64,000 bases of DNA from NCBI GenBank assembly GCA_018830295.1, contig JAHJSM010000002.1, positions 14,598 through 78,597 of the forward strand, given 5' to 3'. This DNA comes from Patescibacteria group bacterium. Lineage in GTDB: Bacteria; Patescibacteriota; Minisyncoccia; Portnoybacterales; UBA2143. The notes under the pieces are model-generated. The model was not told the DNA's origin and did no database searches. It worked only from the letters and a program-made list of their open reading frames with translations. The translations under genes were made by a program, and so were the position numbers. Shown here in pieces: positions 1,611-48,016 of this stretch (position 1 is the stretch's first letter; each line of letters opens with the position of its first letter).

Positions 1611-1715
1611 TTCAACCTCCTTTTTGAGCGTTTAATTTAAAAAATTGATTATTGACAAGGAACTGTTTGAACCAGGATATACTACATTCTTTTTTATTTT
1701 TTGTAAAGACCTCGC

Positions 1716-1728
1716 GTGTGTGGTATAA
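1716..1728 (+). promoter_or_regulatory. extended -10 promoter element TGTGGTATAAT upstream of rlmN
   Basis: TGnTATAAT-like sequence 25 nt upstream of ATG at 1753; identical 21-nt TGGTATAATCAAAACATAATA recurs at 42340. Confidence 0.4.
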
Positions 1729-1752
1729 TCAAAACATAATATAAATAATTTT

Positions 1753-2778: not shown

Positions 2779-2781
2779 ATG

Positions 2782-2808
2782 TTCGGCTATCCGATAGCCG
2801 ACTTTTTA
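2782..2808 (+). terminator. hairpin TCGGCTATCCGATAGCCGA followed by a T-tract (intrinsic terminator; member of the TTCGGCT...AGCCGAA hairpin family)
   Basis: perfect inverted repeat directly after the rlmN stop, followed by CTTTTT. Confidence 0.5.
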
Positions 2809-2912
2809 AAGTTATACGGGGTTGTAATTTTTTTTTGATAATTTATAATAGAATAAAAACAAAAGGTCGAGTTTTAGTTGAGTTAATTTAATTTATTATT
2901 AAGAAACAAAAT

Positions 2913-5126
2913 ATGAAAAAAATTTTAATTTTTAGTTTAGTTTTGGGAGTAGCGTTAGTTGTTGGTTTGGTTGGCGGCGTCGGCGCGGTGACGCCAATTT
3001 ATGTTGATGACGATTGTGGAACAACACAAGACGGCACAATAGATAATCCTTATTGCACCATTAATGATGCGCTTGTTGCTGCAACTACTGGCGACACGAT
3101 TGAGGTCGCGGCTGGGACTTATACGAATGATATTTGGGATGGTTTGTTAACAGGAAACGATAGATATAGAATTAAAAAAAGTGTCACATTGCTCGGCGCT
3201 CAAGCAGGTGTTGACCCTAACGGACTTACAAGTAGAGGCGAAGAAACAATTCTTGTCAGGACTAACGGTGTTCAGTATTCATTATATGCTTCTGATATAA
3301 CTATTGATGGGTTTATGATTGGTAGTTCAGATGCGAATACTGGCGGACGATTAATAATTTCTGATGTAGCAGATAATGCAATAATAAGAAATTGTATTAT
3401 TCAGAACACGCCAAGCACATCTTCTGGTCATGGAGTTTATATCTATTCAGGAGCAGACAATGCTTTGGTTGAATATAATACATTCTCAAATACTGCATGG
3501 GAAGCTATCGCAAGTTATGGCGCTTCAAATGCTGTGATTACTCACAATTACATTTCCAACTCTGGACAACATGCGATACAATTTATGGGACATTCAGGAA
3601 GTGATAATGAAATCAGCTACAACCACATTTCAGGTATTGTTGACAAGAATGCCATACAGTACTGGGGTGGTTCAGGAGCTATTATAACTCATAACATGAT
3701 TGTCGGTGAAGGAACTATGTATGATGGAATATGGTTGGATGCTGCTGCTGACGAGAGTACTGTAAGTAACAACCAGATTTTCGATACAGTATATGCGGGA
3801 ATAAATGTAAGGGGTGATTGTACAGATGCAACTGTTACATATAATAATATTTCTGGTTGTGGAACGGGGGTAGATGTTGTGGGGTCAATAACCGGAACTG
3901 TAATAAACTTTAATGCCATTCATGGAAATGGAATGGGTGTCTCTAATTATTACAGCACTGATATAATCAATGCAGAATTCAACTGGTGGGGAGATGATAG
4001 TGGTCCAACTCACTCTACAAATCCATCTGGAATAGGTGATGCGGTTAGCGATAATGTGGATTTTACTCCATGGTGGAATGTTAGTAATGAGGAAGTTGTC
4101 AAAATAGATATTAAACCAGGAAGTGATACAAACAGTATAAATCTTGGTAGTAAGGGCGTTGTATCTGTGGCAGTATTAACTACAAATTACTTTGATGTTA
4201 GCACCATTAATGAGGCTACAGTAACATTTGCTGGTGCTCCACAAGTGAAGGTGATTTTGGAGGACAGGGATGGAGATGGTGATTTGGATATGGTATTTCA
4301 TTTTAGGACACAAGATTTGGGTTTAGATGAGAATAGCACTGAAGCCACTCTTTGTGGTGATTATTCTTATAATGAAATCCTGACACAATCTTTCCGTGGC
4401 ACAGATACGGTGAATATTGTACCGACAAAAACTTCTGCGAAAAAACAAAAACAGAACTCAATGATGAATCAGGATTCTGAAAGCGCGTCATATACGACAT
4501 ACCACGGCAATGGTATTTACAGCACTACACATTTGTTAAGAAAAGATGAGATAAAACCGGAAAAGGCTCCAAAGAAAGCAGTTACACAAGGTCCGACTCT
4601 TTACAAATTGATGGGGGTAAAATGGGCAAGTACGCCAGATTATGTGGCGCAGAGTGACTTGCTTGTTATAGCAGCAACAGCTTCTATAACAACATGGAAT
4701 AATGCAACTGAATTTGGTTTGCTTGGCGTTGGAAGTGTTAATGCAGACATCCCCTTTGAAGCGTTTGATGAAGACGGAAAATTAATAACTGATGGATTTA
4801 ATTCCTACACTTACGGAAATTATCCACTATCAGGCGTAATAGCGGTTTGTAGAACATGGTGGAATGCAGCTGGCGAAATCATTGAATATGATATTATGTT
4901 TGATGATGATTTTGCATGGGGAGATGCGACAGATGATTCAACAGTAATGGATTTGCAGAATATCGCGACGCATGAAATTGGTCACGCTTTTGGCTTGCTT
5001 GATTTGTATAATCGTCCATCCGTGGAGCAGACAATGTATGGATATAGCGGATATGGAGAAACCAAAAAGCGAGATTTAGAAGTAGGCGATATCGCAGGAA
5101 TTCAGGCATTGTACGGAAATAACTAA
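2913..5126 (+). CDS. secreted parallel beta-helix repeat protein with C-terminal metzincin-type zinc metalloprotease domain
   Basis: signal peptide; multiple NxxG/ITHN beta-helix-like repeats (AIITHNMIVG, NAVITHNYISN); C-terminal HEIGHAFGLLDLY equals HExxHxxGxxH followed by a Met-turn-like MYGY. Confidence 0.6.
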   Translation: MKKILIFSLVLGVALVVGLVGGVGAVTPIYVDDDCGTTQDGTIDNPYCTINDALVAATTGDTIEVAAGTYTNDIWDGLLTGNDRYRIKKSVTLLGAQAGVDPNGLTSRGEETILVRTNGVQYSLYASDITIDGFMIGSSDANTGGRLIISDVADNAIIRNCIIQNTPSTSSGHGVYIYSGADNALVEYNTFSNTAWEAIASYGASNAVITHNYISNSGQHAIQFMGHSGSDNEISYNHISGIVDKNAIQYWGGSGAIITHNMIVGEGTMYDGIWLDAAADESTVSNNQIFDTVYAGINVRGDCTDATVTYNNISGCGTGVDVVGSITGTVINFNAIHGNGMGVSNYYSTDIINAEFNWWGDDSGPTHSTNPSGIGDAVSDNVDFTPWWNVSNEEVVKIDIKPGSDTNSINLGSKGVVSVAVLTTNYFDVSTINEATVTFAGAPQVKVILEDRDGDGDLDMVFHFRTQDLGLDENSTEATLCGDYSYNEILTQSFRGTDTVNIVPTKTSAKKQKQNSMMNQDSESASYTTYHGNGIYSTTHLLRKDEIKPEKAPKKAVTQGPTLYKLMGVKWASTPDYVAQSDLLVIAATASITTWNNATEFGLLGVGSVNADIPFEAFDEDGKLITDGFNSYTYGNYPLSGVIAVCRTWWNAAGEIIEYDIMFDDDFAWGDATDDSTVMDLQNIATHEIGHAFGLLDLYNRPSVEQTMYGYSGYGETKKRDLEVGDIAGIQALYGNN

Positions 5127-5198
5127 GAATAGTTTTTCCTATGCGGGGGTGGGTTTTTTGGACCTGCTCCCGCGTTTGAGGAATTAGAAATACAAATT

Positions 5199-6314
5199 AT
5201 GAAAAAACAATTTAATATCTTGGCGGTTGGTATGGTTATGGTTGGATTAACCGCAGGTTTGCTTGGCATGGTTATGTTTTCTGAGGCGGCGTCGGTTGAT
5301 AAGAATCAGGATTCTTATCAAGAAGCGCCAAAACCCATACATGCCACTAATATAAAAATAGCTAAAAAAATTCCCGCTTCCTTGGTGGGAGAAGATGTAA
5401 GGGGTGTGTCAGAAGTTATTCCAAGGGAATATAATAAGCCCGATTTTTCAGAAAGAGTGGCAACGGGAGTTTTGGGACCGATAGCAATAGGCAATAAATA
5501 CGCCGTGGTGATCGGGATTTGTGATTATCCAGAAGGAGGAGAAATTAGCGATATTTGTCTTTCAGACGGCGATTCTTACAATATGGTAACAGCGCTTATT
5601 GAAAATTATGGATATGATCCAGAGAATATTTATTGGTTTAGAGATATGGGCGGCAAGATTGATGTTAATAATGTTAATATTAGCTATGGGATTCCTACTC
5701 ATGAGAATATCGGAAAAGCCGTGATGGAAATAAAAAATAAAATAAGTCCAAATGACGAAGTGGTGTTTTTCTTCAGCGGACACGGAGTAAGCGGAACAGT
5801 TAACGATGGCACTGTAGAATATGAAAATGACGGAGAAATTATAGACGAAGGAATTGTGGTTCATGACAGCGACGGAGAAATGGACGGAGATGGCTATTCA
5901 ACATTAGATTTTATTTGGGATGGGGAACTAAGAAGTTGGTTTTACGATTTCGGCACAGAAAGAATTGTTTTTATATTTGATACTTGTCTTGCGGGCGGGA
6001 TGAATGATGTGACTCGTGATGAGAATAATGAAATTTATAGCAATCGGATTATTGTTATGTCGTCTGAAGAAACTCAATCTTCTTATGTGTTTTCATACGG
6101 AGATTTTGGAGAAGGGATGTTTAGCCGCCATTTTGTTAACGAAGGAATGTTGCAGGGTTTAGCAGACGGGTATAATCAAATTCAAACAACAGATGGCAAT
6201 GTGGCTGTGGAAGAAGCGTTTGATTATGCTAAAGAAAATATGCCTTCTTATTTATTAAAGTTTAGACAGACACCTGTAATCAGCGATATGTTTGATAACG
6301 ATTTGGTTTTATAA
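5199..6314 (+). CDS. membrane-anchored/secreted caspase-like cysteine peptidase (clan CD, C14/C13-like)
   Basis: N-terminal hydrophobic segment; ordered His-Gly (FFFSGHGVSG) and Cys (FIFDTCLAGGM) catalytic dyad context as in the caspase/legumain/gingipain fold. Confidence 0.5.
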   Translation: MKKQFNILAVGMVMVGLTAGLLGMVMFSEAASVDKNQDSYQEAPKPIHATNIKIAKKIPASLVGEDVRGVSEVIPREYNKPDFSERVATGVLGPIAIGNKYAVVIGICDYPEGGEISDICLSDGDSYNMVTALIENYGYDPENIYWFRDMGGKIDVNNVNISYGIPTHENIGKAVMEIKNKISPNDEVVFFFSGHGVSGTVNDGTVEYENDGEIIDEGIVVHDSDGEMDGDGYSTLDFIWDGELRSWFYDFGTERIVFIFDTCLAGGMNDVTRDENNEIYSNRIIVMSSEETQSSYVFSYGDFGEGMFSRHFVNEGMLQGLADGYNQIQTTDGNVAVEEAFDYAKENMPSYLLKFRQTPVISDMFDNDLVL

Positions 6315-8523: not shown

Positions 8524-8815
8524 AATTAAAAAAATTACATATTTGTCTTTTGATAAGCATCTTGCCGAGGAATTAAAAAATCCTGAATTTAAGAAGTATT
8601 ATAATGAATACGGCAAGCAGTTGGAGATTGCTTATCAAATTTTGCAATTAAGGAAAAAGAGCAAAATGTCTCAAGCGGAATTGGCTAAGAAAATAGGGAC
8701 AAAACAAAGCAATATCGCTAGAATGGAAAAAGGTCAGCAAAATTTTACGACTGAGACGCTTCAGAGAATCGCTTCGGCTCTTGGTCGCGAGTTGAGAATT
8801 GAATTTGTAAAATAA
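8507..8815 (+). CDS. XRE-family HTH antitoxin (HigA-like)
   Basis: MSQAELAKKIGTKQSNIARMEKGQQNFTTETLQRIASALG is a canonical XRE helix-turn-helix. Confidence 0.6.
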   Translation: MNMKNKIKKITYLSFDKHLAEELKNPEFKKYYNEYGKQLEIAYQILQLRKKSKMSQAELAKKIGTKQSNIARMEKGQQNFTTETLQRIASALGRELRIEFVK

Positions 8816-8817
8816 AT

Positions 8818-10617
8818 ATGAACTCAAAGGAAATTAGGCGGAGGTATTTGGAATTTTTTGAGGCGAGGGGGCATCGCGTTATTGGCGGGGCTTCTTTGAT
8901 TCCTGAAAATGATTCTTCCACGCTTTTTATCGGTTCGGGGATGCAGCCGCTTATACCGTATTTGCTTGGCGAAAAACATCCGAGCGGGACGCGGTTGGTT
9001 AATTCGCAGAAATGTTTTCGGGCGGAGGACATGGAGGAGGTGGGGGATAATCGCCACAATACTTTTTTTGAAATGCTTGGTAATTGGTCTTTGGGCGACT
9101 ATTTTAAAGAGGAGCAATTGGGATGGCTTTTTGAATTTTTAGTTGATGAATTAGGGTTTGACCCGTCGCGGATTTATGTTTCGGTTTATGGAGGGAATGA
9201 GGAAATTGGCGTTCCGAAGGATTTGGAGTCGGTTGAGATTTGGAAGAAATTGTTTGAAGGAGAGAGGATTTTCTATTACGGCGACGAGAAAAATTGGTGG
9301 TCGCGTTCGGGCGTTCCAGTTAAGATGCCTGTCGGCGAGCCAGGAGGACCCGATAGCGAATTATTTTACGATTTGGGCGCTCATTTGAAGCGGCATGAAA
9401 ATTCTGTTTGGAAAAATCAGCCCTGCCATATTAATTGCGATTGCGGGCGGTTTATTGAAGTTGGGAATAGTGTTTTTATGGAATATATCAAGACGGAAAA
9501 GGGCTTTGAAAAATTAAAACAAAGAAATGTTGATTTCGGCGGGGGACTGGAAAGAATGGCAATGGTGGCGCAAGGGAAGGATAATGTTTTTGAAACAGAT
9601 TTGTTTGTTAATATTTTGAATAAAATTGAGGAACTTTCGGGGGGCAAAAAATACAGGGATAATATGAAGTCGTTTGAGGTGATTGCCGACCACATTAAAG
9701 CGGCCGTCTTTATTATCGGTGATACGCGAGGCGTTTTACCGTCAAATCTCGGGCAAGGATATGTCGTTAGGCGGTTGATTCGCCGCGCGATTAGGTATGG
9801 TAGATTATTGGGAATTGACGGAGGCGACTGGATGAAAAAATTGGCAGCGGTTGTTTTGGACGACTACAAAGATGTTTATCCTGAATTAGACAAGAAAAGG
9901 GAATTTGTGATTAAAAATATAGTAGAAGAAGAAGAAAAATTCAGCAGGACGATAGAGAGAGGGTTGAAAGAATTTGAAAAAGTGGCGGGGGGCAAAATCA
10001 GCGGAATGGACGCTTTTAATTTGTATCAGAGTTATGGTTTTCCGATTGAAATGACGCGCGAGTTGGCGGAAGAAAAAGGGCTGGAAGTGGATGAAAATGG
10101 ATTTGGCGAGGAACTTAAAAAACACCAAGAACTGTCGCGAACTGCTTCGGCGGGCGAATTCAAAGGCGGGCTGGCGGACGCGGGCGAGGAAACTAAAAAA
10201 CTACACACGGCGGCGCATTTGCTTTTAGCGGCCTTGAGGAAGGTCTTAGGTGAGGGCGTGGAGCAAAAGGGAAGCAATATCACGGCGGAACGATTGCGGT
10301 TTGATTTTTCGTATTCGGATAAAATGACGGACGAGCAGAAAAAAGAAGTTGAGGATTTAGTCAACGAAGCGATTAAAAAAGATTTACCGGTAGTTTGCGA
10401 AGAAATGTCTTTGGAGGAAGCGAAAAAATCTGGCGCGGTCGGCGTTTTCGAATCCAAATATGGAGAAAAAGTTAAGGTTTATAAAATCGGAGATTTCTCA
10501 AAAGAAATTTGCGGAGGTCCGCATATAGAGCGAACAGGCGAATTGGGAGGATTTAAAATAGCAAAAGAGCAAAGTTCTTCGGCTGGCGTTCGGAGAATTA
10601 AGGCAGTTTTAAAATAA
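8818..10617 (+). CDS. alaS: alanyl-tRNA synthetase, compact form lacking the C-terminal C-Ala domain
   Basis: N-terminal RYLEFFEARGH...SLIP.NDSSTLF class II AlaRS signature; editing domain HTAAHLL...CGGPH; only 599 aa. Confidence 0.85.
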   Translation: MNSKEIRRRYLEFFEARGHRVIGGASLIPENDSSTLFIGSGMQPLIPYLLGEKHPSGTRLVNSQKCFRAEDMEEVGDNRHNTFFEMLGNWSLGDYFKEEQLGWLFEFLVDELGFDPSRIYVSVYGGNEEIGVPKDLESVEIWKKLFEGERIFYYGDEKNWWSRSGVPVKMPVGEPGGPDSELFYDLGAHLKRHENSVWKNQPCHINCDCGRFIEVGNSVFMEYIKTEKGFEKLKQRNVDFGGGLERMAMVAQGKDNVFETDLFVNILNKIEELSGGKKYRDNMKSFEVIADHIKAAVFIIGDTRGVLPSNLGQGYVVRRLIRRAIRYGRLLGIDGGDWMKKLAAVVLDDYKDVYPELDKKREFVIKNIVEEEEKFSRTIERGLKEFEKVAGGKISGMDAFNLYQSYGFPIEMTRELAEEKGLEVDENGFGEELKKHQELSRTASAGEFKGGLADAGEETKKLHTAAHLLLAALRKVLGEGVEQKGSNITAERLRFDFSYSDKMTDEQKKEVEDLVNEAIKKDLPVVCEEMSLEEAKKSGAVGVFESKYGEKVKVYKIGDFSKEICGGPHIERTGELGGFKIAKEQSSSAGVRRIKAVLK

Positions 10618-34493: not shown

Positions 34494-34569
34494 GGGCGCG
34501 TCCGTTAATTGGTTAAACGGCTGGTCTCCAAAACCGGTCCTGCAGGTTCGAGTCCTGCCGCGCCTGCCA
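34494..34569 (+). tRNA. tRNA-Trp (anticodon CCA), CCA encoded
   Basis: acceptor GGGCGCG/CGCGCCT (G1.U72), D CGTT/AACG, anticodon stem CTGGT/ACCGG with loop CTCCAAA, T-arm GCAGG-TTCGAGT-CCTGC. Confidence 0.8.
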
Positions 34570-36084
34570 ATGGGTCAGGTTAGAACCTTTAGTTTTATTA
34601 AGTTCTGCCACGAAATTAAAGGGTTCTTTAAGGTCAAAATTCAGTAACCCATCTCTTAGTATAAAGTTTTTGCCAACAGCCCTTAGAAGGGCTTTTTTGT
34701 CTTCAATACTGCCCTCCTCAAACACTTTATAAGCATGGTTGGTTTGGATAATTAGGTTTTCCGCATAATCATGCCACGCTTGATTGGTTTTATCATGGGC
34801 TTCCAATTTTTCTTTGGCTTCCATTTTGGCGTCTAAAATTTCTCTTTTTTTCTTGCCGTACTCTTCTTTTTCAATTAAGCCGTCAGTATAAAGATTAAGC
34901 AATCTATCTAGTCTGTCCTCGCATTTGTTAAATATATTTTGCCAATACTTAATACTATTTAAATATAATTCTTTTTCGTTATTGTGGCTTTTTTTGACAG
35001 CCGTCATTAAAAGTTCTTTAACCATGTCGCCAATAGTGATTTCCTTTATTTTCAACCTTAATTGTTTTTCAATTTCTTCTTCTCTTAAATAGGGTTGAGC
35101 ACATTTTCCTCTTTTTTGGGTGCAGTGGTAATAAACATGTCCTTTTTTCTCTTCGGCTGTAATTGAGCATCCGCAATAACTACATTTGATGATTCCTCTG
35201 AAGGCGAATTGCCAGCGTTGAGAAATGGGGCGGCTATTCTGGCGGAGGACTTCTTGGATTCGATCAAAGATTACTTTACTGATAAGCGGTTCATGATTTC
35301 CTTCGTATTGTTCGTTTTTCATAACCATCATTCCGTAGTAAAATGGATTTCGAAGTAATCGGGCTAAAACACTTTTACTAACTTTTTTATTTTTTAATTT
35401 ACCCCTTAAGTCAAGCTGGTAAGATTTTTCTGCCATTGTTTCCAAATTGAAGTTTCCGGTGGCATATTCCTCAAAAATTTTCTTAATTATCGAACCTTGG
35501 ATAGGATCAATTTCTATCCGTTTTAATACTTTGTTTTCCTTTTCTAAAAGCCGTTGTTTGTGTTTGTCATAACTTTTGCCCGCGATAACGCCTTTTCCGT
35601 CCATATTAATATATCCTATCGGCGCTAAACCTGGCCATTCCTTTTTAGTAGTTAGCTTATGCCTAAAACCTCTTTTAGTGTTAAAACTTAAATCATCAAC
35701 ATATTTTGTAGCCATGCCGAATTCAATTTGCATTAGAAATTTATCATTAACGCCTTCGTAAGTTTTTTCAGCAGTGACAATTTTTGAAATAGTGCCCTTG
35801 CCTAGCCAATAAATAATTCTGCCTCCATCAAGTTCATTTCTAGCTAGTCGGTCTAATTTCCAAGCGATGATCCCGCAATTTCCAGTTTCTATTTTTTCCA
35901 TCATTTCATTAAAAACAGGTCTGCCAATATCTTTGGCTGACCTGGATTCTTTGAATATCTCTACAATGTTTAATCCTTCCTTTTGCGCTAACTGAGTTAA
36001 TTCCCTAATTTGAGAATCAATTGAGAGTATTTGACGATCTTCCTCTTCTGAAGACTTGCGAACATAAAGAAAATATTGGTTCAT
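34513..36084 (-). CDS. large serine recombinase (phage-type serine integrase)
   Basis: N-terminal resolvase catalytic domain YVRKSSEEEDRQILSIDSQ (Ser nucleophile), recombinase domain, zinc ribbon CSYCGCSITAEEKKGHVYYHC, C-terminal coiled coil; last 18 codons (WQARQDSNLQDRFWRPAV) are encoded on the antisense strand of tRNA-Trp nt 34513-34569. Confidence 0.8.
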   Translation of the reverse strand: MNQYFLYVRKSSEEEDRQILSIDSQIRELTQLAQKEGLNIVEIFKESRSAKDIGRPVFNEMMEKIETGNCGIIAWKLDRLARNELDGGRIIYWLGKGTISKIVTAEKTYEGVNDKFLMQIEFGMATKYVDDLSFNTKRGFRHKLTTKKEWPGLAPIGYINMDGKGVIAGKSYDKHKQRLLEKENKVLKRIEIDPIQGSIIKKIFEEYATGNFNLETMAEKSYQLDLRGKLKNKKVSKSVLARLLRNPFYYGMMVMKNEQYEGNHEPLISKVIFDRIQEVLRQNSRPISQRWQFAFRGIIKCSYCGCSITAEEKKGHVYYHCTQKRGKCAQPYLREEEIEKQLRLKIKEITIGDMVKELLMTAVKKSHNNEKELYLNSIKYWQNIFNKCEDRLDRLLNLYTDGLIEKEEYGKKKREILDAKMEAKEKLEAHDKTNQAWHDYAENLIIQTNHAYKVFEEGSIEDKKALLRAVGKNFILRDGLLNFDLKEPFNFVAELNKTKGSNLTHWQARQDSNLQDRFWRPAV

Positions 36085-38741: not shown

Positions 38742-38931
38742 ATTTTTTTATTTATATTTTAATTATGTCCAAAAACACAAAGCCCCCCACGAGTGATAGT
38801 CCTTTCGGACCATCCAATAGCCTTTCGACCATTGACCCAATCACGAGTACTCAATGAGGAGCTTAATATCGTGATTGGGGTTTTATGCCATATCCCTATG
38901 AGACGAGACTTAGGCAAATTAAATTGTCTGA

Positions 38932-39870
38932 TTATAGATTATCTTTTTTATTCTTTTTAGTCAACCGCTTGTCGTGGAATTTGTGATAGGCTTCTTTTAG
39001 AAAATTGTTTGAGACACTTAAGTATCTTTCGGTTGTGGAAATTGAGCTATGTCCAAGTAATTTTTGGACAAAGTAAAGATTACAGCCGTTGTTGAGCAAA
39101 TCCACGGCGAAAGACCTCCTCATTGTATGAGGCGTGACTTTTTTGACAATCTTGGCTAATTTGCTATATTTGGTTATCAGTAATTGAACGCCCCGAGGTG
39201 ATAGCCGGGCTATTATATCCCTATCATGACGGACAAATAGGGCAGGACAATTATCTTTTCTTGCCTTAAGGTAATTTTCAAGACCATCAATGGCATTTCC
39301 GGACAGAAAAACCAGTCTAATCTTGCCTCCCTTGCCTATGATTGCGAGCTCTTTTTGTTTAAAATTAATTTGTTCCTTATTTAAATTAGTTAGTTCGAAA
39401 AGCCGGAGCCCAGTTGAAAATAAAAGTTCTAAAATTGCTTTATCTCGCAAATTGATTATTGGCTTGGCTTGGTATCTAAGTGGAGCTTTTAGTAATTTCC
39501 TCAATTCGGACCTATCTAAAAAAGTTACTTCTCTGTCACTAATTTTAGGCAATTCAATGATTTGAGGCGTAATAGCTATTTTATAATCTTGTTTTTGAAG
39601 ATGGGCAATAAAACTGCGGATTATTATTAAATAATGCGATTGGGTGGCTAAACTCAAATTTTGGCTTGATTTGCCTTTTAATTTGCTCAACCACAATTGA
39701 TAATTAATTAAATTTCTTTTAGTAATTTGGTCAATTGGAATATTGCCAAGTTGCTTTTTAAAAAGATCTAAGCCACGGCTATAACTAATTAGCGTGTGAT
39801 GACTTTTGCCTCTAATTTTTAGATATTCCAAAAAATTTTTAATGGATTGTGTTAATTTTATTGTTTCCAT
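38932..39870 (-). CDS. tyrosine recombinase (XerC/XerD-like integrase family)
   Basis: C-terminal catalytic block TPHTMRRSFAVDLLNNGCNLYFVQKLLGHSSISTTERYLSV (R...HxxR...Y). Confidence 0.8.
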   Translation of the reverse strand: METIKLTQSIKNFLEYLKIRGKSHHTLISYSRGLDLFKKQLGNIPIDQITKRNLINYQLWLSKLKGKSSQNLSLATQSHYLIIIRSFIAHLQKQDYKIAITPQIIELPKISDREVTFLDRSELRKLLKAPLRYQAKPIINLRDKAILELLFSTGLRLFELTNLNKEQINFKQKELAIIGKGGKIRLVFLSGNAIDGLENYLKARKDNCPALFVRHDRDIIARLSPRGVQLLITKYSKLAKIVKKVTPHTMRRSFAVDLLNNGCNLYFVQKLLGHSSISTTERYLSVSNNFLKEAYHKFHDKRLTKKNKKDNL

Positions 39871-39920
39871 AATTTAGGAGCGCGTATCGCGCGCGCGTTA
39901 TAAAACGAACTTATTGGCAA

Positions 39921-40352
39921 TTAATCCGTTATTAACCCTTTTTCCTTAAAAGAAAAGTAATCGTTCTTTAAATTAATTATTATGTGGTCGAACAATTCGA
40001 TTCCCAGTATTTTGCCAGCTTCCGCTATCCTTTTTGTTGTCTTCAAGTCGTCCTCTGACGGCTCAATTTCTCCGCTTGGGTGATTATGTAAAATGATCAA
40101 GCTAGCAGATGATGCCGTTATGGCAGGTCTAAAGGTTTCTCTTGGGTGGATTAAGCCAGCATTCAATACTCCCAGACCTATTAATTCAATCCGTGTTATG
40201 GCATTTCTGGCGTTCAAATATACTGCCCAAAAATGCTCCTTCATTCTGTCGTCTTTTTCTTCTGACTTAAGGACTTCTGTCAAAATCTTAGCTATCTTTT
40301 TAGGATCGCTAATTTTTGTTTTTCTTATTTTATCGCTTATTTTTATTCTCAT
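39921..40352 (-). CDS. RadC-like JAB/MPN domain protein
   Basis: LIILHNHPSGEIEPSEDDLKTTKRI is the JAMM-like HNHPSG motif of RadC (UPF0758). Confidence 0.75.
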   Translation of the reverse strand: MRIKISDKIRKTKISDPKKIAKILTEVLKSEEKDDRMKEHFWAVYLNARNAITRIELIGLGVLNAGLIHPRETFRPAITASSASLIILHNHPSGEIEPSEDDLKTTKRIAEAGKILGIELFDHIIINLKNDYFSFKEKGLITD

Positions 40353-40379
40353 GTTTTGGCTCCTTTCTAAAATTTAAAT

Positions 40380-42330
40380 TATATTTTGGACGCAAAACAA
40401 AAACCCCGGCCGTACAAAATCGACCGGGGCCCTCAACCTCGAAAGGCTGAGACCCAACCTTAAAAAGGTTGAGATGGTTCTATCATACCAAAACCAAAGA
40501 GCGTTTGGCAAATAGAAAAGACCTTAAGTTTTGTAACGGCGCGAACAACGCGCCCAAAAGGCAAATATTCAAGTAAAGATTTTTTAAGTTTCTACCTCCA
40601 TTTTAAGCGATTTTCGGATGAGAGTCAATAGGTCCGAATGGGGATAAACACGCACTGGTAAACGCTTTATAGCGTTTTTGAGGATTGAAGTTGGGTTCAC
40701 ATAATCGGCATTATGAGATTAGCTATAATGTTGGTTTTGAGGTGTTTTGAGCCAGAAAAAAAAGACCGAAGCATAAGAGGACACTTAGCGTTCAAAGGCA
40801 TCTGCGACACGATCTCCAAAAACGCCAGGCAAGTACGTAGTTTATACCGTTTGAGCGATGAACGGGGATATATCTTCAGAATATTAAACTATCCCATTTT
40901 GGCGTTCTACGCTAGTCAGTCTGGGATCGTATGAATTAGGTCATCTTGGATCGAAAAACCCCTTATATGGCTGTTTTTATATCAAAAATCGCCTTCCTCA
41001 GCTACTTTTCTTCTGGGTTGGACAACCGATAGAGTTGTTCGACCAGCGTTGATCGATGTTTTTTGCCATAATCGCCCTTATCAATGAGTCGGTTGAACCA
41101 TTGAGCAATAGCCGGACGACCAAAGTTTCTGTCTTTGACGGTTTCGGCAAAACAAGTAAAACTAGACCAATATGGGTTTTGGTTTGATATTGTATTGAAT
41201 ACTCGATAAATAGATCGCATAGTTAATTTTATATGGGTTTGTTTGATATTGAAGGGCTAACCGAGGGGCTAAGGCACTATCTGTGGTCAGGCTCCTTGCT
41301 GATCAACCTGGGCATTCATCTACCATCTTTTACCATTTTCCCTAGTTAGTTGGCTAACCTCTCTTCATCTTCCCTTACACACCAACCCCCGTTTAGAATA
41401 GCAACGGCTTCCAAAGCCTGTCTATTAGCCTGGAGTACCGCAATCCCTAGGAATCCATTATTTCGTGGTAGGGTCTTGATTGACTGTAGTTGGAATATGA
41501 TGTCCAGCTGTTAAACTTTCATCCATCACCCACCAACCCGAATTCTTTATCGCCCAATCTTTTTACGGTTTAACGATAAAGCAATGTAGACCATAACGCT
41601 CTACTGCGCGGAAATTACGATGCTACCCCCTTATCGTCAGTAGTGTCCGTATTCCTTTATCCCAGCTGTCTTTTATTAAGACAGTAGCTAACAGGTAGCT
41701 ATACTTAGTGGCACTAATGGGCGGCATCCTGGGTTCGCCTTACCACACCCCATTAGGTTTTTAAGAGTTTTATTAGAGCTCTATTGTAATTAAACAATTT
41801 TTTACCAACAACATCGTCAAGGCGAACCTGCTATTGAATCTAAACGATGTTGCTAGTAAAAAACTGATTATTAACAATCTGGCTAAACTTTAAATCTTCA
41901 TATTCTTTTTTTTGTGTTCTAACTGGCTGTTTTCTGTTGATTCTAAATTTGTCTGATTTTTATTTTTAGCGAACTGGACAAAGACATTGGCTATGTCTTG
42001 GATATTTTTTGCAATTTCAATAATCTCCTTTTCTGAGGGGTCAAGTCCATATTTTTCAAGAATTTTTTTGTAATCTGTATTATCGAAGTCCATGATTGTG
42101 AAAATAAAAAAGCCGCCAACGCTATTCAGGCTGGTGGTTTAGAAATAAAAAAAGACTACTAATCAAAACCCAGCACTGAATTGTGCCAGTCCGATGGTAG
42201 TCTTGTGCGCCTCAGTGGACTTAATAAGAGGAGCGACTTGAGGAATATTTAGTTTTATATCTTATTGAGATATTACTTTAGATTACCCAAAGGGTCAAAT
42301 ATTTGTTTTTTTGGCTTTTCAAACGAGCGG
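40380..42330. other. about 2-kb ORF-poor region inside the island with locally elevated GC (about 47% vs about 38% flanks) and multiple hairpins; candidate structured non-coding RNA(s) or decayed genes
   Basis: only three 60-75 aa ORFs in 1.95 kb; hairpins at 40397-40430 and 40432-40484; 21-nt direct repeat at 41171 and 41231; no rRNA, tRNA or group II domain V signature recognised. Confidence 0.3.
41171..41251. repeat. two copies of direct repeat TATGGGTTT(T)GGTTTGATATTG spaced 60 nt apart
   Basis: copies at 41171-41193 and 41231-41251 flank the start of the 72-aa ORF 41002-41220. Confidence 0.5.
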
Positions 42331-42339
42331 ATTTTTGGT

Positions 42340-42361
42340 ATAATCAAAACATAATACTTCA
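42340..42361 (+). promoter_or_regulatory. promoter-like TGGTATAATCAAAACATAATA, 21-nt identical to the rlmN upstream element
   Basis: exact copy of 1718-1738; contains a TATAAT -10 hexamer; 40 nt upstream of the 42402 start. Confidence 0.4.
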
Positions 42362-42401
42362 GTTTAGCATCAATAAAAAGAGGACTTGATTAAATAATTT
42401 T

Positions 42402-43190
42402 ATGGCAAAAGAAATAACAACTAAATATTTTAAGCAATACAGACAAAAATTAGGTTTTGCCAATCAAATGGATGTTAAAAAGTTTTTTGGAGCCAAGGAT
42501 GTTCTCCCGACCGTAGATTTTAGCTACATAAAGTTATTAAACAAGAGACTTTACGAAATAGTTGATTTAATAAACGCTGTCGTTGCTGATAATATAAAGG
42601 TTGATGATCTGCTTTCGTTTAAAAAAGAAGAGATAGACCATTCTTTTGAGATAATGAAAAAAAACAAAATTTTGCCGAGATTAAATAATCTTGGCAGAAG
42701 ACCCGAACAAGTTTATTTTTCTTGGATGAGGGGCTATGTAATTTCCAGTTTTTTCTTAAAGGCATTGGGCATAGTCTTTGAGGTAGATACTTCAAAAATA
42801 GACCTAATTGGAGATGATGATTTGAGAAATATTGAAACTTTCAGAAGGACTCCAAAAGCGGATTTGGAAATTAAATTAAACGGTAAAGAAAAGGTTAGAA
42901 TAGAAATACAATCTGGTTTTACCGGTATAAATGATATAAAACAACACAAAGTGTTAGAATCAAAACGCATTTTTAGAGATTTGGGAATTCATACATTGGC
43001 AATTCATTTTGATTTATACAACGGACAAGTGGCATTTGTAAAACTAGACGAGATAGAAGACAGAAATATCAATTGGATTACAAGGCAGCAAATGGAAGGG
43101 CAAACGGTTTTTAACATAAATCAGAATTATTTCGTGTGGAAAATTACGCAGAAGCCAATCAAATATAAAAAAATCAAATTTGATTTATGA
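42402..43190 (+). CDS. candidate type II restriction endonuclease (PD-(D/E)xK-like), partner of the adjacent C5-methyltransferase
   Basis: IGDDD...PKADLEIKLNGKEKVRIEIQ fits D-x(n)-ExK; stop overlaps the MTase start (ATGA) implying co-translation. Confidence 0.35.
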   Translation: MAKEITTKYFKQYRQKLGFANQMDVKKFFGAKDVLPTVDFSYIKLLNKRLYEIVDLINAVVADNIKVDDLLSFKKEEIDHSFEIMKKNKILPRLNNLGRRPEQVYFSWMRGYVISSFFLKALGIVFEVDTSKIDLIGDDDLRNIETFRRTPKADLEIKLNGKEKVRIEIQSGFTGINDIKQHKVLESKRIFRDLGIHTLAIHFDLYNGQVAFVKLDEIEDRNINWITRQQMEGQTVFNINQNYFVWKITQKPIKYKKIKFDL

Positions 43191-44314
43191 GTAAAAAAAT
43201 CAAAATAATAGATTTGTTTTCTGGAGTTGGGGGGTTGAGTTATGGCTTTGCTCGCGATGACAATTTTGAGATAGTAGCAGCAAATGAGATTTTGGAAAAT
43301 ATGGCTAAGGCCTATTTGTTAAATCATCCAGGAGTAAAAGTTTATGTTGACGACATAAAGAATTTTAACGCGAAAATTATTAAGGGTGATCTGCGAATTA
43401 AAACAGGGAAAATTGATATAATTGTTGGCGGACCGCCTTGTCAGGCCTATTCAACAGTTGGCAAAAGATTAATTAACGATTCGCGAGGAAAACTTTTTCA
43501 AGAATATTATCGGGTTTTGAAGGAATTCAATCCGAAATTTTTTCTTTTTGAAAATGTAAAAGGATTGCTATCTATGCAAGGAGGAGAATTATTGAAAACA
43601 ATTATGTCGCTTTTTGAATCGTTGGGATACGAGACGCAATATAAGGTTTTAAACGCGGCTGACTACGGCGCGCCGCAAATAAGAGAAAGAGTCATAATTA
43701 TAGGGTCAAAATTAAAAACTAAATTTCAGTATCCAAAACCCACACATTATGATTCGAAAGAAAAACAAAGTTTGTTTAATGATAATTTGCTTCCTTATTT
43801 AACTCTTGAGGACGCCATAAGTGATTTGCCATTTATTAAAGCGGGAGAGGAAATTTTTGAATATATCTCGGAGCCAAAAAACGATTTTCAGAAAATTATG
43901 AGAGAAAATGTTCAGGAAAAGTTGATGGATCATAACGCTCCAAAAAACAACGAAAGATTAATTAAGATAATGGAATTGTTACCGGATGGCGGCACACCTG
44001 AAGATTTGCCGAAAGAGTTGCGACCAACATCGGGATTTAAAAATACTTACTGTCGTTTGTGGTGGAAACGACCATCAACTACAATTACGAGAAATTTAGG
44101 CACACCATCATCTTCCAGGTGTATTCATCCGAAAGCGCCAAGGCCGTTAACCACAAGAGAGGGGGCAAGAATTCAATGTTTTCCAGATGATTATCAATTT
44201 TATGGTTCAAGGGGCGACAGGAACTTACAAATAGGAAATGCCGTTCCGACATTTCTTTCTGTCGCGTTGGCAAAATCGATTTTAAACAATTTTCAAACAG
44301 AAAAATTGATTTAA
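43187..44314 (+). CDS. DNA (cytosine-5)-methyltransferase
   Basis: motif I DLFSGVGG, motif IV GGPPCQAYS, motif VI ENV, motif X QIGNAVP. Confidence 0.85.
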   Translation: MSKKIKIIDLFSGVGGLSYGFARDDNFEIVAANEILENMAKAYLLNHPGVKVYVDDIKNFNAKIIKGDLRIKTGKIDIIVGGPPCQAYSTVGKRLINDSRGKLFQEYYRVLKEFNPKFFLFENVKGLLSMQGGELLKTIMSLFESLGYETQYKVLNAADYGAPQIRERVIIIGSKLKTKFQYPKPTHYDSKEKQSLFNDNLLPYLTLEDAISDLPFIKAGEEIFEYISEPKNDFQKIMRENVQEKLMDHNAPKNNERLIKIMELLPDGGTPEDLPKELRPTSGFKNTYCRLWWKRPSTTITRNLGTPSSSRCIHPKAPRPLTTREGARIQCFPDDYQFYGSRGDRNLQIGNAVPTFLSVALAKSILNNFQTEKLI

Positions 44315-44408
44315 TTTACAGAAAAAGGTTTCTAGCATCTTTTTATGCAGATGCGCCTGGCGTTTCGTTGGACGATCTAATGAAATAATCAATGAATATA
44401 TTTTATTT

Positions 44409-47400
44409 ATGGCAACTTATTATCAAAACAGATATAGATATCGAGGAGGATATAATAAAAGAGCTTCGGCTAATATTAGAACAAAAGAAAACAAAGCGCC
44501 GATAGTCCATACTGATCCAACATCTTCTCGTTGGCAGAATCTTCTTAAATATTATGGAGCCTGTATTTCGGTTGAGAATTCTGGAGAAATTACGCTTTTT
44601 TCTTTTAAAGAAGGGACAGAATTTTTACAAGTGCCAGTAATGGATAAAGAGTGGGTTGCGTCTGGGAAAGAGCGATTAGAGTTTGAAGGGCAAAATGAAA
44701 AAATACAAACATTAATCAACGGGCCACGGTGGAGTCGGAGCCCGCTTTCTTTTTTTTACGGTTTTCCATGCCACATCAAACATATTGAACAATCAAGGCG
44801 CGGCTGGTCAGGTCAAATTATTCAGCCGATTTTGATTTTCGGCGTTGATCTAATACGGACGGAAACTGGGTACGCGTTTGTATTACAATCAGATAGACCA
44901 AGAATAAATTCAGCTTTTCTTACTGATAAAAGTTTATTAACCAGTGTTGAGGAAAGAAAACAAGTAGCTGAAGCGGTTTTGGGGGCATGGGACGAAGAAA
45001 AAAGCAGAGAGCAGAACCTTAAAACCATTCTTAGCGCATTTGCCGAATTACTACCGCAAGAGGTTTTATTTTCAAAAGATATTTTACGCGACAAAACGAC
45101 TGAATTGAAAGCAGAAAACAGTATTTTGCCTCTTGGAATAATTTTTCGAAGCGTGGATTCAAAATATACATACGGATTAGAACAGGAGTTGAGCGAACTG
45201 CGGGGCGTTGCCACTCCGAATGATGTTTGGCGCGTCATTTTGGACCGAAATACAGAAGATGGAAAAAATAACAAGAATGACGAGTTTTTGGAAATAACTG
45301 GACTGAACGATGAACAGCGCGGAGCGGTCAAAAGTGCTTTTAATAATATAGTTAGCGTAATCACAGGGCCGCCAGGAACTGGAAAATCGCAAATTGTCCT
45401 CAATATTATTGCTAATGCCTTATTACATAACGAGAGCGTCTTGTTCGGAAGTAAAAATCATAAGGCAGTTGATGTTGTTATTGAACGGTTGTTGCGACTA
45501 CAGTCAGAACCAGTCATTTTAAAATATGGGCAAAAAGAACGAGAGGTTGAGTTTGCAGAAGCGCTTTTATCTGCGATTGAGCGCGCATCAAGTTATGACA
45601 GTCAAATATTAGAACGCGAAATCGGAGAATATAAGAAAAAATTAGAATTAATCAGAGAGGAAGAAGAAGAGGCGAAAAAATCTCTTTTTCGTATTCTTGA
45701 CCGGAGAAATCGCATCAGCCATCTTGATGCCGTTCTTGAATTAATTAAAACGGAGTTGCCTTCACCAATTTCTAAAAATTTAAAGCAGTATAAAAAGATT
45801 GAAAGAAATTATAACTTTAATAGATTACTTGGTCTTTTGGGTCGTTTGATAAAAGAAATTGATGGGGACTTGAGTTTTGTTTCGCGCATCCTTTCTTTTT
45901 TTGGTTTAACCATAGAGAAGCGGGTATTGAAAGCTTCAAAGTCTTTGCTTATTGTTATGCCTATTCAGGGCATTTCTTTTCCGATCAAATCAGAACATAA
46001 TTGCAGGGAGATTTTGACTGTTGCGCGTTTACTGAAGCGATGGATGGATAATCAATCAGAACTTCTAAGCGTTGTGCGCGAAAATGAAAATGAACAACGA
46101 ATAGAAATTTTACGAGAGAGAATAACAAAAAGTAAAGAGCGCGCAATTGATGTCAGTATCAGATATGTTGATGCGCTGATGAAGCGTCGCTTGAAATCAT
46201 TAGGAAGTAAGGAGCGACGCGATATTGCTGATTATGTAAGTATTGTTCGGCGACTAGAAGGCGATGTAATTGGCGGCGATTTTGCCAAAAGATTATACAA
46301 TGAAAGAAAGCGGATGTTTAAGAGCGTGGTTAGAGCATTTCCGGCAATGGCTGTAACAAACCTGTCTGTACGCCATGCGCTTCCATTAAGCGCTGATGTT
46401 GTTGATATAGTGGTTATTGACGAAGCGTCGCAATGCGATATTGCATCAGCACTTCCGCTCCTGTATAGAGCAAAACGGGCTGTAATTATTGGAGATCCGA
46501 ATCAGCTTACCCATATTTCTCTTTTACATCGCGCAGACGATCAGCAATTGCAGCAACAGATGGGGTTAACCTCCACGGATGACCAGCGTTTTCTTTACAG
46601 CATCAACTCTCTTTTTGAACTTGCAAGAAGTACTGTTGGCACAGGAGCAAAGTTTACGCACCTGCTTGAACATTATCGTAGTCGCGCAGAGATTATTGGA
46701 TTTTCAAATAAAAGATTTTACGGCAATAGGTTGAGCGTGTGGACGGATTATAGGCGATTGCGCGGAACAGGACATCCAGACGCTGTTGTTTGGCATGATG
46801 TTGTTGGAGAAGTTATTCGTCCATCTGTCGGAAGCGCTTATAATCTTGATGAAGCAAAAGAAATTGTTGTGTTGATTGAGGAGATTATTAAAAGAATTGC
46901 GGCGCATGGCGATGATTATTCTGTATCGCTTGGCGTCGTGACTCCATTCAGGGAACAAGCGAATAAGATTAGAGATTTAATAGGGCAAAAAATAGATGCA
47001 GCTCAGCTACGAAAGTTGGATTTTATAGTCGAAACTGCTCATAAATATCAAGGCGATGAGAAAGATATAATGATTTTCTCCCCCGTAGTATCCCGTAAAA
47101 TTCAAAAACGCTCACTCGGATTTTTAGGTAGTACGGTTAATTTATTTAATGTAGCGATTACTCGCGCGCGGGCAGAATTACATATTGTCGGTGATAGAGT
47201 TGCTTGTGCTCAATCGGGCATTCTACATCTTTCGAAGTTTGTGCAATATGTCGATGAATTAGAGCCAGAAAATAAAGACCAAAAAGGTGGAAAATTTGAG
47301 TCGCCATGGGAGGAAGTTTTGTACGATGCGCTCGCTCGGAAAGGGATTAAGACAATCCCTCAATATCCTCTCCATCAATATCGTCTTGATCTTGCTATCG

Positions 47401-47606
47401 TTGATTCAGAAATTCCCATTGATATAGAAATTGATGGAGAGATGTGGCATCGTGATATTGATGGGGGGCGATTGCTTTCAGATTTAAAGCGGGACCAACA
47501 TCTTATTATGTACGGCTGGCAAGTTAAGCGGTTTTGGGTGTATCAGCTCCAAAATGACTTAGAACAATGCGTGCAAGAAATAAAGGAAATCATTAAGAAA
47601 AAATGA
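44409..47606 (+). CDS. SF1 (Upf1/DNA2-like) helicase fused to C-terminal DUF559/Vsr-like endonuclease domain; unknown about 300-aa N-terminal domain
   Basis: Walker A TGPPGTGKSQ, motif II VVIDEASQ, AAA_12-like C-lobe (FSPVVSR...GSTVNLFNVAITRARAELHIVGD); C-terminal ...YPLHQYRLDLAIVDSEIPIDIEIDGEMWH resembles the DUF559 (PD-(D/E)xK) fold. Confidence 0.7.
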   Translation: MATYYQNRYRYRGGYNKRASANIRTKENKAPIVHTDPTSSRWQNLLKYYGACISVENSGEITLFSFKEGTEFLQVPVMDKEWVASGKERLEFEGQNEKIQTLINGPRWSRSPLSFFYGFPCHIKHIEQSRRGWSGQIIQPILIFGVDLIRTETGYAFVLQSDRPRINSAFLTDKSLLTSVEERKQVAEAVLGAWDEEKSREQNLKTILSAFAELLPQEVLFSKDILRDKTTELKAENSILPLGIIFRSVDSKYTYGLEQELSELRGVATPNDVWRVILDRNTEDGKNNKNDEFLEITGLNDEQRGAVKSAFNNIVSVITGPPGTGKSQIVLNIIANALLHNESVLFGSKNHKAVDVVIERLLRLQSEPVILKYGQKEREVEFAEALLSAIERASSYDSQILEREIGEYKKKLELIREEEEEAKKSLFRILDRRNRISHLDAVLELIKTELPSPISKNLKQYKKIERNYNFNRLLGLLGRLIKEIDGDLSFVSRILSFFGLTIEKRVLKASKSLLIVMPIQGISFPIKSEHNCREILTVARLLKRWMDNQSELLSVVRENENEQRIEILRERITKSKERAIDVSIRYVDALMKRRLKSLGSKERRDIADYVSIVRRLEGDVIGGDFAKRLYNERKRMFKSVVRAFPAMAVTNLSVRHALPLSADVVDIVVIDEASQCDIASALPLLYRAKRAVIIGDPNQLTHISLLHRADDQQLQQQMGLTSTDDQRFLYSINSLFELARSTVGTGAKFTHLLEHYRSRAEIIGFSNKRFYGNRLSVWTDYRRLRGTGHPDAVVWHDVVGEVIRPSVGSAYNLDEAKEIVVLIEEIIKRIAAHGDDYSVSLGVVTPFREQANKIRDLIGQKIDAAQLRKLDFIVETAHKYQGDEKDIMIFSPVVSRKIQKRSLGFLGSTVNLFNVAITRARAELHIVGDRVACAQSGILHLSKFVQYVDELEPENKDQKGGKFESPWEEVLYDALARKGIKTIPQYPLHQYRLDLAIVDSEIPIDIEIDGEMWHRDIDGGRLLSDLKRDQHLIMYGWQVKRFWVYQLQNDLEQCVQEIKEIIKKK

Positions 47607-47785: not shown

Positions 47786-48016
47786 ACCGATAGAGAAAGT
47801 GAGTAACAATTTGATAACCTAACCTTTGAGCTTTTCGCTTGGAGTATGGTTTAAATCCATCTACATAAAAACGGTCTTCTGGCCGGCACTATGTAGATGG
47901 TCTTTGTCCGAAAGGGCATTGGGTGATCTGAAAGGATTGCCGCCGACGGAAGGCCTTTTTTGTTGGCAAAATTTATTGGGGGAAATCAATTTAAATAATT
48001 TAATAATCAAAAAAAT

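Follow-up and report, generated by a model that had tools for sequence, protein, structure and literature searches.

A conserved structured RNA upstream of the RadC–tyrosine recombinase operon of a Patescibacteria integrative island: a candidate transcription attenuator

What fills a gap in an integrative island where hardly any open reading frame (ORF) can be found? We addressed this question for positions 40380–42330 (hereafter, the stretch) of a 64,000-nucleotide (nt) window of DNA from a Patescibacteria group bacterium; the window is the whole piece of DNA analysed, and coordinates refer to it. The stretch is a minus-strand mosaic of two small protein genes and three conserved, folded non-coding modules (M1, M2 and M3), not one giant RNA, and everything functional in it reads on the minus strand. 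Its best-supported module, M3, represents a family of structured RNAs that has no match in Rfam 15 and lies directly upstream of an operon encoding a RadC-like protein and a tyrosine recombinase. Judging from sequence comparisons, we consider it reasonably probable that the stretch forms the island's regulatory and small-gene region and that M3 is a transcription attenuator of the RadC–tyrosine recombinase operon.

An initial annotation had attributed the stretch to structured RNA, pointing to large RNAs of the GOLLD and ROOL kind and naming a plasmid-type origin with iterons or decayed genes as alternatives. The general claim was borne out: homologues conserve covarying structure, on one strand, at 40388–40826 (M3), 41478–41639 (M2) and 42101–42237 (M1). 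The more specific proposals fared less well, as described below.

Conservation, fold and strand of M3

Related islands (L004/L005, L008, L011, L014, L038, L018 and L023) were recovered from metagenomes through exact-protein look-ups and one DNA-pattern scan. M3 is present in eight related metagenomic loci. RadC is 88% identical to that of the window in L004/L005, which carry other defence cargo; 78% in L014; 74% in L008, a minimal island consisting of a 137-amino-acid (aa) ORF, RadC, tyrosine recombinase and serine recombinase; 73% in L038; and 71% in L011. M3 always stands directly upstream of one operon, which begins with RadC or, in L008 and L018, with the 137-aa ORF followed by RadC, and its upstream neighbours are different in every relative. 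The DNA upstream of M3 is a defence-gene hotspot that borders a conserved core, and the variable cargo sits there. Loci whose RadC is at most 68% identical (L006, L009, L012 and L036, mostly phage-like) contained neither M3 nor any shared non-coding DNA, and M3 was also missing from L039, the only viral RadC relative (66% identity). A blastn search of phage and plasmid collections returned no match, a DNA pattern scan of GTDB genomes gave three chance matches in Clostridia without homology, and pattern scans of viral contigs gave chance matches at most. The parts of M3 are as follows.

40388–40826, minus strand: M3, the whole element, found in eight related loci
40671–40826, minus strand: M3 5′ domain, with helices H1 (40826–40816 with 40681–40671) and H2 (40796–40786 with 40754–40746) and hairpin H3 (40717–40698)
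40600–40667, minus strand: conserved upstream block GCGTTTACCAGTGCG and promoter-like site P1, predicted unpaired and conserved in sequence
40628–40600, minus strand: P1, with TTGACT (40628–40623), 17 nt and TAAAAT ending at 40600, from a consensus scan and conservation
40388–40593, minus strand: M3 3′ domain, a putative leader of about 200 nt, from covariation, a terminator scan and fold tests
40562–40558 with 40525–40521, minus strand: helix Pa, enclosing H5
40554–40538, minus strand: hairpin H5 of the 3′ domain
40535–40529, minus strand: linker UACAAAA, just 3′ of H5
40517–40478, minus strand: hairpin H6, nearly invariant in seven sequences
40474–40453, minus strand: hairpin H7 of the 3′ domain
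40432–40451, minus strand: extra UUCG hairpin, CUCAGCCU-UUCG-AGGUUGAG, between H7 and the terminator
40431–40402, minus strand: putative terminator with an 11-base-pair (bp) GC-rich stem bearing compensatory changes, a loop at 40419–40413 and a U-run to about 40388

Five full-length and three partial homologues were aligned, and the structure was derived from RNAalifold and pair counts over five sequences. RNAalifold predicted 76 pairs in eight helices, with 92.6% of the cells paired. Compensatory changes occurred at 20 pairs, compared with 12.2 ± 2.0 in column shuffles, none of which (0/500) reached 20; when the partner was slid by 1–3 columns, the number of compensatory pairs fell to 3–7. 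In the alignment, the register of H7 and of the linker is offset by one column from one lineage to another. Read in the RadC orientation, M3 contains 46 G·U against 9 A·C combinations, an excess which indicates that the minus strand is the folding strand. The 3′ domain is 92.3% identical to that of L004, while the adjacent RadC coding sequence is 87.5% identical. No family in Rfam 15 matched M3.

Could the stretch consist of decayed genes? Gene remnants are frequent in islands, and two segments of the stretch (41221–41477 and 41640–41762) have no homologue. However, substitutions in M3 show no 3-nt periodicity (p = 0.66–0.87) and its indels, mostly of 1–2 nt, are not multiples of 3; the non-coding modules as a group lack codon periodicity, and selection acts on base pairing instead. 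Translation in six frames revealed no protein remnants by Pfam scan, tblastn with the ORFs of the neighbours gave no match, and the short ORFs that cross M3 are not retained in relatives. We regard an origin of the stretch in pseudogenes as very improbable.

The M3 5′ domain is closed by an 11-bp long-range helix with two further helices inside. L004 lost this domain by a deletion between GCGTTT repeats and keeps the P1 unit intact, which argues that the 3′ part of M3 is autonomous. We also considered that 40666–40819 might be an inserted miniature inverted-repeat transposable element; this was rejected, as the segment is present in L023, L008, L011 and L018 and its absence from L004 is that same deletion. 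The hexamers of P1 and their 17-nt spacing are invariant in six sequences although the spacer between them is variable, as one would expect of a promoter. A DnaA-box-like site with one mismatch, TTATCCCCA (40639–40647, minus strand), is the only such site in the region; five of six relatives (L004, L008, L011, L018 and L023) carry a perfect DnaA box, TTATCCACA, at the same place, 10–11 nt upstream of the P1 −35 hexamer.

Several further observations concern the M3 sequences themselves. The extra UUCG hairpin resembles a duplicate of H7 and is also present in L004 and L023, with none in L008, L011, L014, L018 or L038. L018 (20–470, reverse strand) is chimeric, with a 5′ domain like that of L008 and a 3′ domain like that of L011, a combination that points to recombination within M3. 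The Logan contigs L002 (at its start) and L003 (at its end), which come from one sample, both break in the 5′ domain at about 40734–40762 of the window; the breaks fall at a run of eight T/A, and the probable cause is that low complexity or strain variation disturbed the assembly. A palindrome containing GTGCAC lies just upstream of M3 in L008 (825–860) and L011 (2033–2069), and none is found in the window.

Could the element act at the level of DNA, whether as an origin of replication or transfer (with iterons, a DnaA box or folded single-stranded DNA), as a single-strand promoter or as a site at which the adjacent tyrosine recombinase recombines? The conserved DnaA box beside P1 would fit, as would the position of M3 at the border of conserved core and variable defence cargo and the layout of the 5′ domain, an inverted-repeat-closed unit upstream of the promoter; moreover, Rfam-style motif searches are known to catch single-stranded DNA sites such as attC (PMC5737381). 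However, the DnaA box is single, whereas an iteron-type plasmid origin has a DnaA cluster, an AT-rich unwinding element and three or more regular repeats by a rep gene, and Pfam and PHROGs scans identified no rep gene. The 21-nt direct repeat behind the iteron proposal exists, but it is imperfect, with 22 nt in one copy (41171–41192), 20 nt in the other (41232–41251) and a 2-nt indel between them. One copy forms codons 10–17 of the 72-aa ORF described below and the other lies in the 5′ untranslated region of that ORF, at the exact endpoint of homology to L004, which has a single copy only; the pair is thus specific to this genome, and the iteron origin was abandoned. Searches with nhmmer found one M3 per locus and no cassette array, unlike the arrays of structured recombination sites in integron attI/attC platforms, and a conserved sigma-70-type site followed by a hairpin with a U-run is what marks a transcribed unit. 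A DNA-level role is, in our estimate, improbable.

Alternative pairings at the terminator and a proposed attenuator

In addition to conservation, covariation and strand, M3 displays a terminator anatomy and two alternative pairings. The CCCCGG...CCGGGG hairpin singled out by the initial annotation is real and resembles an intrinsic terminator on the minus strand (40431–40402, followed by the T-run), and CTCAACCT...AGGTTGAG, also named there, is part of two adjacent hairpins (40474–40432). The terminator ends about 35–50 nt before the ribosome-binding site of RadC or, in L008 and L018, of the 137-aa ORF, and no separate conserved RadC promoter was found after it. In all loci M3 stops about 35 nt short of RadC or of the 137-aa ORF that precedes it.

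The linker just 3′ of H5 can pair with the terminator loop. This pairing is perfectly Watson–Crick in all seven sequences that have both parts, and it is realised in three covarying linker/loop versions, UACAAAA/UUUUGUA, UAUAAGA/UCUUAUA and GUACGAAU/AUUCGUAC. Such a helix arises by chance in 1–4% of shuffled leaders, per sequence. As a stand-in for the nascent transcript, RNAs were truncated three nt past the terminator loop and folded; the minimum-energy fold paired linker with loop in six of the seven sequences. The truncated folds often add a pairing of AAGG(U/C)C with the 5′ arm of the terminator, which closes a junction around H6 and H7. Full-length RNAs fold as Pa, H5, H6, H7 and terminator instead. 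The linker–loop helix overlaps the terminator stem by only 2–4 nt, and a pseudoknot is also compatible with the data. AAGGU is at the same time the 3′ strand of Pa, and the arrangement therefore has the layout of a terminator/antiterminator switch.

An attenuator or riboswitch-like leader is, on this sequence evidence, the most likely mechanism of M3. P1, a sigma-70-type site, would start a leader of about 200 nt that ends in a terminator before RadC. Within this leader the 7–8-nt linker and the neighbouring AAGG(U/C)C would choose between two partners, the 5′ strand of Pa or the terminator loop with part of its stem. When the linker region is engaged with Pa, the terminator would form and transcription would stop before RadC; in the other state, the long-range antiterminator helix would close the junction with H6 and H7, and polymerase would read through. 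M3 would thereby gate the expression of RadC and the recombinase in response to a signal. Promoter activity, termination, switching and the regulated outcome are what we infer here.

Several points weigh against this proposal. The promoter, the terminator and the switching are all deduced from the sequence itself. The homologues of M3 represent no more than about three independent lineages, and behind each covarying pair there are therefore one or two events; the support for M2 consists of two sequences only. The truncated fold of the window's own sequence does not contain the linker–loop helix (0/7 nt). More than 100 nt separate the antiterminator strands, an unusual distance for riboswitch expression platforms, and the part of the terminator 5′ arm that the second antiterminator helix uses varies between lineages. 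The 5′ domain lies upstream of P1 and has no conserved promoter of its own. Finally, the near-invariant H6 matches TTGCCA, 18 nt and TGnTATGAT (an extended −10), and it may be a second promoter for a short terminated RNA of 65–90 nt.

If H6 is read in that way, M3, and perhaps M1, would be stand-alone trans-acting small RNAs (sRNAs), either of about 200 nt from P1 or of 65–90 nt (H7 and terminator) from H6, with the linker–loop pairing as a stabilising pseudoknot. The succession of a promoter, stem-loops and a strong terminator would suit such RNAs, the extended −10 match of H6 is nearly invariant in seven sequences, and the H6 3′ arm matches all but one of 15 positions in codons 11–15 of the 72-aa mRNA. 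Yet the terminator always has the same orientation and the same short distance to the ribosome-binding site of the same operon, whatever lies upstream, with no conserved separate RadC promoter beyond it; a pseudoknot in which 7 of the 8 loop nt pair with a strand outside the hairpin would be sterically tight; and the proposed 72-aa mRNA target is absent from L008, L011 and L023. We rate the sRNA explanation as unlikely and retain attenuation as the preferred reading of M3.

Small genes, further modules and genome-specific DNA

Outside M3, the stretch holds the following features.

42094–42299, minus strand: M1, a putative promoter, structured leader and two terminator hairpins 5′ of the 67-aa gene
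42270–42299, minus strand: M1 promoter-like site, TTGACC, 17 nt and TAATAT, from a consensus scan
42101–42237, minus strand: M1 leader RNA, with a hairpin at 42237–42205 and its end 8 nt upstream of the start codon (ATG) of the 67-aa gene
42204–42151 and 42140–42109, minus strand: terminator-like hairpins of the M1 leader, each with a U-run
41890–42093, minus strand: 67-aa protein gene (KKG85_01810) with homologues in L004 and L011
41763–41898, strand unassigned: long imperfect hairpin, with 55-nt arms that are 73% complementary (z = −6.2)
41478–41639, minus strand: M2, a GC-rich two-hairpin element (41639–41571 and 41559–41478)
41221–41477, strand unassigned: non-coding segment with a GC content of 45–48%, holding the repeat copy at 41232–41251
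41002–41220, minus strand: 72-aa protein gene (KKG85_01815), whose product belongs to a large, unnamed family of small proteins with four helices

The stretch had been described as ORF-poor, and indeed only three ORFs of at least 60 aa lie between RadC and the restriction-modification gene at 42402: 40713–40934 (plus strand, 73 aa), 41002–41220 (minus strand, 72 aa) and 41890–42093 (minus strand, 67 aa). Public records list the proteins of the stretch as hypothetical proteins KKG85_01810, _01815 and _01820 of "Patescibacteria group bacterium". The 73-aa ORF is not retained in relatives. The other two are real protein-coding genes, as indicated by an excess of differences at third codon positions together with their homologues. 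For the 67-aa ORF, the homologues are 61 aa long and 75% identical in L004 and 49 aa long and 51% identical in L011, and third positions are in excess in all three comparisons (differences by codon position 8/6/16, 16/11/25 and 15/7/22). For the 72-aa ORF, most differences from the L004 homologue fall on third positions (13/11/26), and a profile search with it retrieved 730 cluster representatives at E ≤ 1e-3, in alignments starting at Met1; two family members are fused to an HNH nuclease, and no Pfam model covers the family. An AlphaFold2 model shows a confident four-helix protein (pLDDT, the predicted local distance difference test score, 87), and a fold search with it against the PDB gave no significant match. 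Database and fold comparisons revealed no known function for either protein, and locus searches anchored on proteins of the 72-aa family in metagenome and viral contigs found nothing. The 72-aa gene is missing from L011, L023 and L008.

The 3′ arm of H6 (40481–40495) is complementary at 14 of 15 positions to the mRNA of the 72-aa gene at codons 11–15 (41175–41189), which lies on the same strand. Both sequences are identical in L004, and pairing of the two in trans is possible.

M1 lies 5′ of the 67-aa gene. L004 and L011 retain both of its hexamers and the 17-nt distance between them, with a variable spacer sequence; RNAalifold on three sequences predicted 43 pairs, 11 of them with compensatory changes; and the comparison with L004 shows no 3-nt periodicity, with indels of 1, 1, 1 and 3 nt. 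M2, the GC-rich piece that the initial annotation had picked up, is about 80% identical to L011 1383–1537 and has no counterpart in L004, L008 or L023. Of its 40 pairs, those affected by substitutions between the window and L011 retain pairing throughout (20/20 substitutions in paired columns), by seven double compensatory changes and six single changes of the G·U type, in the minus-strand sense; its substitutions also lack 3-nt periodicity. On these comparisons, M1 and M2 appear as RNA-module candidates weaker than M3.

Four parts of the stretch are specific to this genome, namely the long hairpin at 41763–41898, the segments 41221–41477 and 41640–41762, and the direct repeat. The long hairpin has no counterpart in L004 or L011; we considered it as a conserved single-strand promoter and rejected this, as it is not conserved. 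Neither 41221–41477 nor 41640–41762 has a homologue among the recovered loci, and 41221–41477 matched nothing in Pfam or Rfam.

Is the whole 1.5–2 kb nevertheless one large ornate RNA of the GOLLD or ROOL kind? Like those RNAs, the stretch is ORF-poor and belongs to a mobile element near a tRNA gene, and it contains locally GC-rich structured pieces. The elevated GC content reported for it holds relative to the coding flanks of the island (36.1%), but its overall 39.8% equals the window mean (39.7%), with 40.5% outside the island; single 150-nt windows reach 0.45–0.48 at 40400–40549 and 41250–41750. Similarly, it is rich in hairpins only locally, in three strong-folding segments (40350–40550, z = −6; 41750–41899, z = −6; 42100–42250, z = −3.9), while folding z-scores across 40650–41750 are unremarkable. 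No GOLLD or ROOL model matched the whole window at the gathering score or 39500–43000 at E ≤ 10, nor did one match the relatives. Among Rfam 15 matches listed to E = 10, none in the stretch exceeded about half of its gathering score, the best being anti-hemB with 26 bits against a threshold of 49.5 bits. Taken together, the scans of the window and of the relatives, at the gathering score and at permissive E-values, returned two LOOT RNAs in the window outside the stretch, the LOOT RNA of L004 and chance-level matches; the absence of rRNA, tmRNA, RNase P and group II signatures, judged by eye before, agrees with these scans.

The pattern of conservation is patchy as well. L004 shares 42266–41883, 41229–40820 and 40665–38754 with the window and lacks 41230–41882 and 40666–40819; L011 shares 42307–41957, 41602–41484 and 40679 onward; and L023 shares 40797–40282, directly downstream of a restriction-modification gene. 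Homologous islands therefore share separate blocks only, of about 140, 160 and 440 nt, in contrast to the several hundred to about 800 nt of GOLLD and ROOL, and the largest continuous block, M3 with about 440 nt, is split by a promoter-like site. Two real protein genes and internal promoter-like sites and terminators interrupt the rest. A single large RNA is hardly credible here. More generally, a gap that is ORF-poor and GC-rich need not hold one large RNA and can be pieced together from small genes and short leaders.

Island setting and relation to known systems

The integrative island adjoins tRNA-Trp in this Patescibacteria (Candidate Phyla Radiation, CPR) genome. Its genes and RNA near the stretch are as follows.

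34494–34569, plus strand: tRNA-Trp
34513–36084, minus strand: large serine recombinase gene, at the end of the island core next to tRNA-Trp
Island, minus strand: MerR-like gene
Island, minus strand: DUF4352 gene, with a LOOT RNA in front
38795–38916, minus strand: LOOT RNA (Rfam RF03000), 5′ of the DUF4352 gene
38932–39870, minus strand: tyrosine recombinase gene (Pfam PF00589, Phage_integrase, 6e-35)
39921–40352, minus strand: RadC-like JAB-domain gene (Pfam PF04002, 6e-38), the first ORF downstream of M3

The conserved island core comprises, in the order of minus-strand transcription, RadC, the tyrosine recombinase and, at the far end by the tRNA, the serine recombinase. The serine recombinase ORF overlaps the 3′ part of tRNA-Trp by 57 nt on the opposite strand, which is what an integration of the island into this tRNA gene would be expected to leave. 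Beyond the stretch, the cargo is divergently oriented and includes an unknown 262-aa gene, a C5 cytosine methylase and a helicase-nuclease. On the cargo side of M3, the window has the C5 methylase and helicase-nuclease (42402–47606), L004 has an EcoRI-like methylase, GmrSD and an AAA ATPase (106–5553), L023 has an 841-aa N6-methylase enzyme (183–3249), and L008 has none.

The two LOOT RNAs of the window (RF03000; 38795–38916 on the minus strand and 47816–47941 on the plus strand, with 74 and 68 bits) each lie just 5′ of a gene starting with MNKK, which encodes the DUF4352 protein in one case and a 1939-aa subtilase/Ig-like surface protein in the other, and the starts of these two genes have a 36-nt inverted similarity in common. 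L004 carries a LOOT RNA at the matching place after the tyrosine recombinase (8809–8930). We rejected the two LOOT copies as terminal inverted repeats or recombination sites; their DNA is dissimilar, and each lies in the 5′ region of an MNKK gene. LOOT shares the island with M1, M2 and M3, but it is a separate 121-nt motif upstream of other genes and is not homologous to them.

By position and gene association, the closest analogue of M3 is the radC RNA motif (RF01754), described in Proteobacteria as a likely RNA and likely cis-regulator whose status as a switch was left undecided (Weinberg et al. 2010, PMC2864571). Both are candidate cis-regulatory structured RNAs in the 5′ untranslated region of radC-type genes of mobile elements. 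M3, however, belongs to Patescibacteria, is longer and has a terminator-loop interaction, and the RF01754 model matched neither the window region (E ≤ 10) nor L004, L008, L011, L014, L018 or L023 (E ≤ 1). M3 also resembles terminator/antiterminator leaders, in being a promoter-proximal structured leader with a predicted intrinsic terminator just before the first ORF and in having two conserved alternative pairings that involve the terminator and would be mutually exclusive. It departs from riboswitch platforms in that the antiterminator would pair with the terminator loop and 3′ side, enclosing more than 100 nt of hairpins, and not with an adjacent aptamer strand; Rfam scans of the window and relatives matched no known riboswitch class to M3. 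We conclude that M3 is best placed, as a new family, among the structured leaders of mobile-element operons, which are of a known kind.

Phages provide a further comparison. Lambda PR′–tR′ 6S RNA with Q and the HK022 put RNA are arrangements of late-promoter or processive antitermination. M1 and M3 resemble the phage late-promoter set-up, in that a putative promoter for a short terminated RNA lies directly upstream of a mobile-element operon, but no Q or N homologue was identified.

Two more far-reaching possibilities deserve mention. It is conceivable, though unlikely, that M3 is a true sensor RNA, that is, a new riboswitch-like or protein-responsive switch that times the expression of RadC and tyrosine recombinase and hence island movement or cargo exchange, with M1 and M2 in the same antitermination circuit. 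In a still more unusual variant, the M3 5′ domain could be a folded single-strand recombination site for defence-gene capture by the recombinase.

To our knowledge, few experimentally studied regulatory RNAs are known in Patescibacteria, and our literature searches found nothing relevant. M3 has a narrow distribution within a small island family, in which a non-coding element is more conserved than the adjoining coding sequence, and it sits directly upstream of the genes likeliest to control recombination of the island. If the switch is true, it would offer a testable handle on how mobility is controlled in islands with differing restriction-modification and defence cargo, and the catalogues would gain one new RNA family, possibly three. 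In summary, M3 is an RNA motif with good support from a phylum that has been little explored; its terminator-loop interaction is unusual, and a role in the control of island mobility is plausible.

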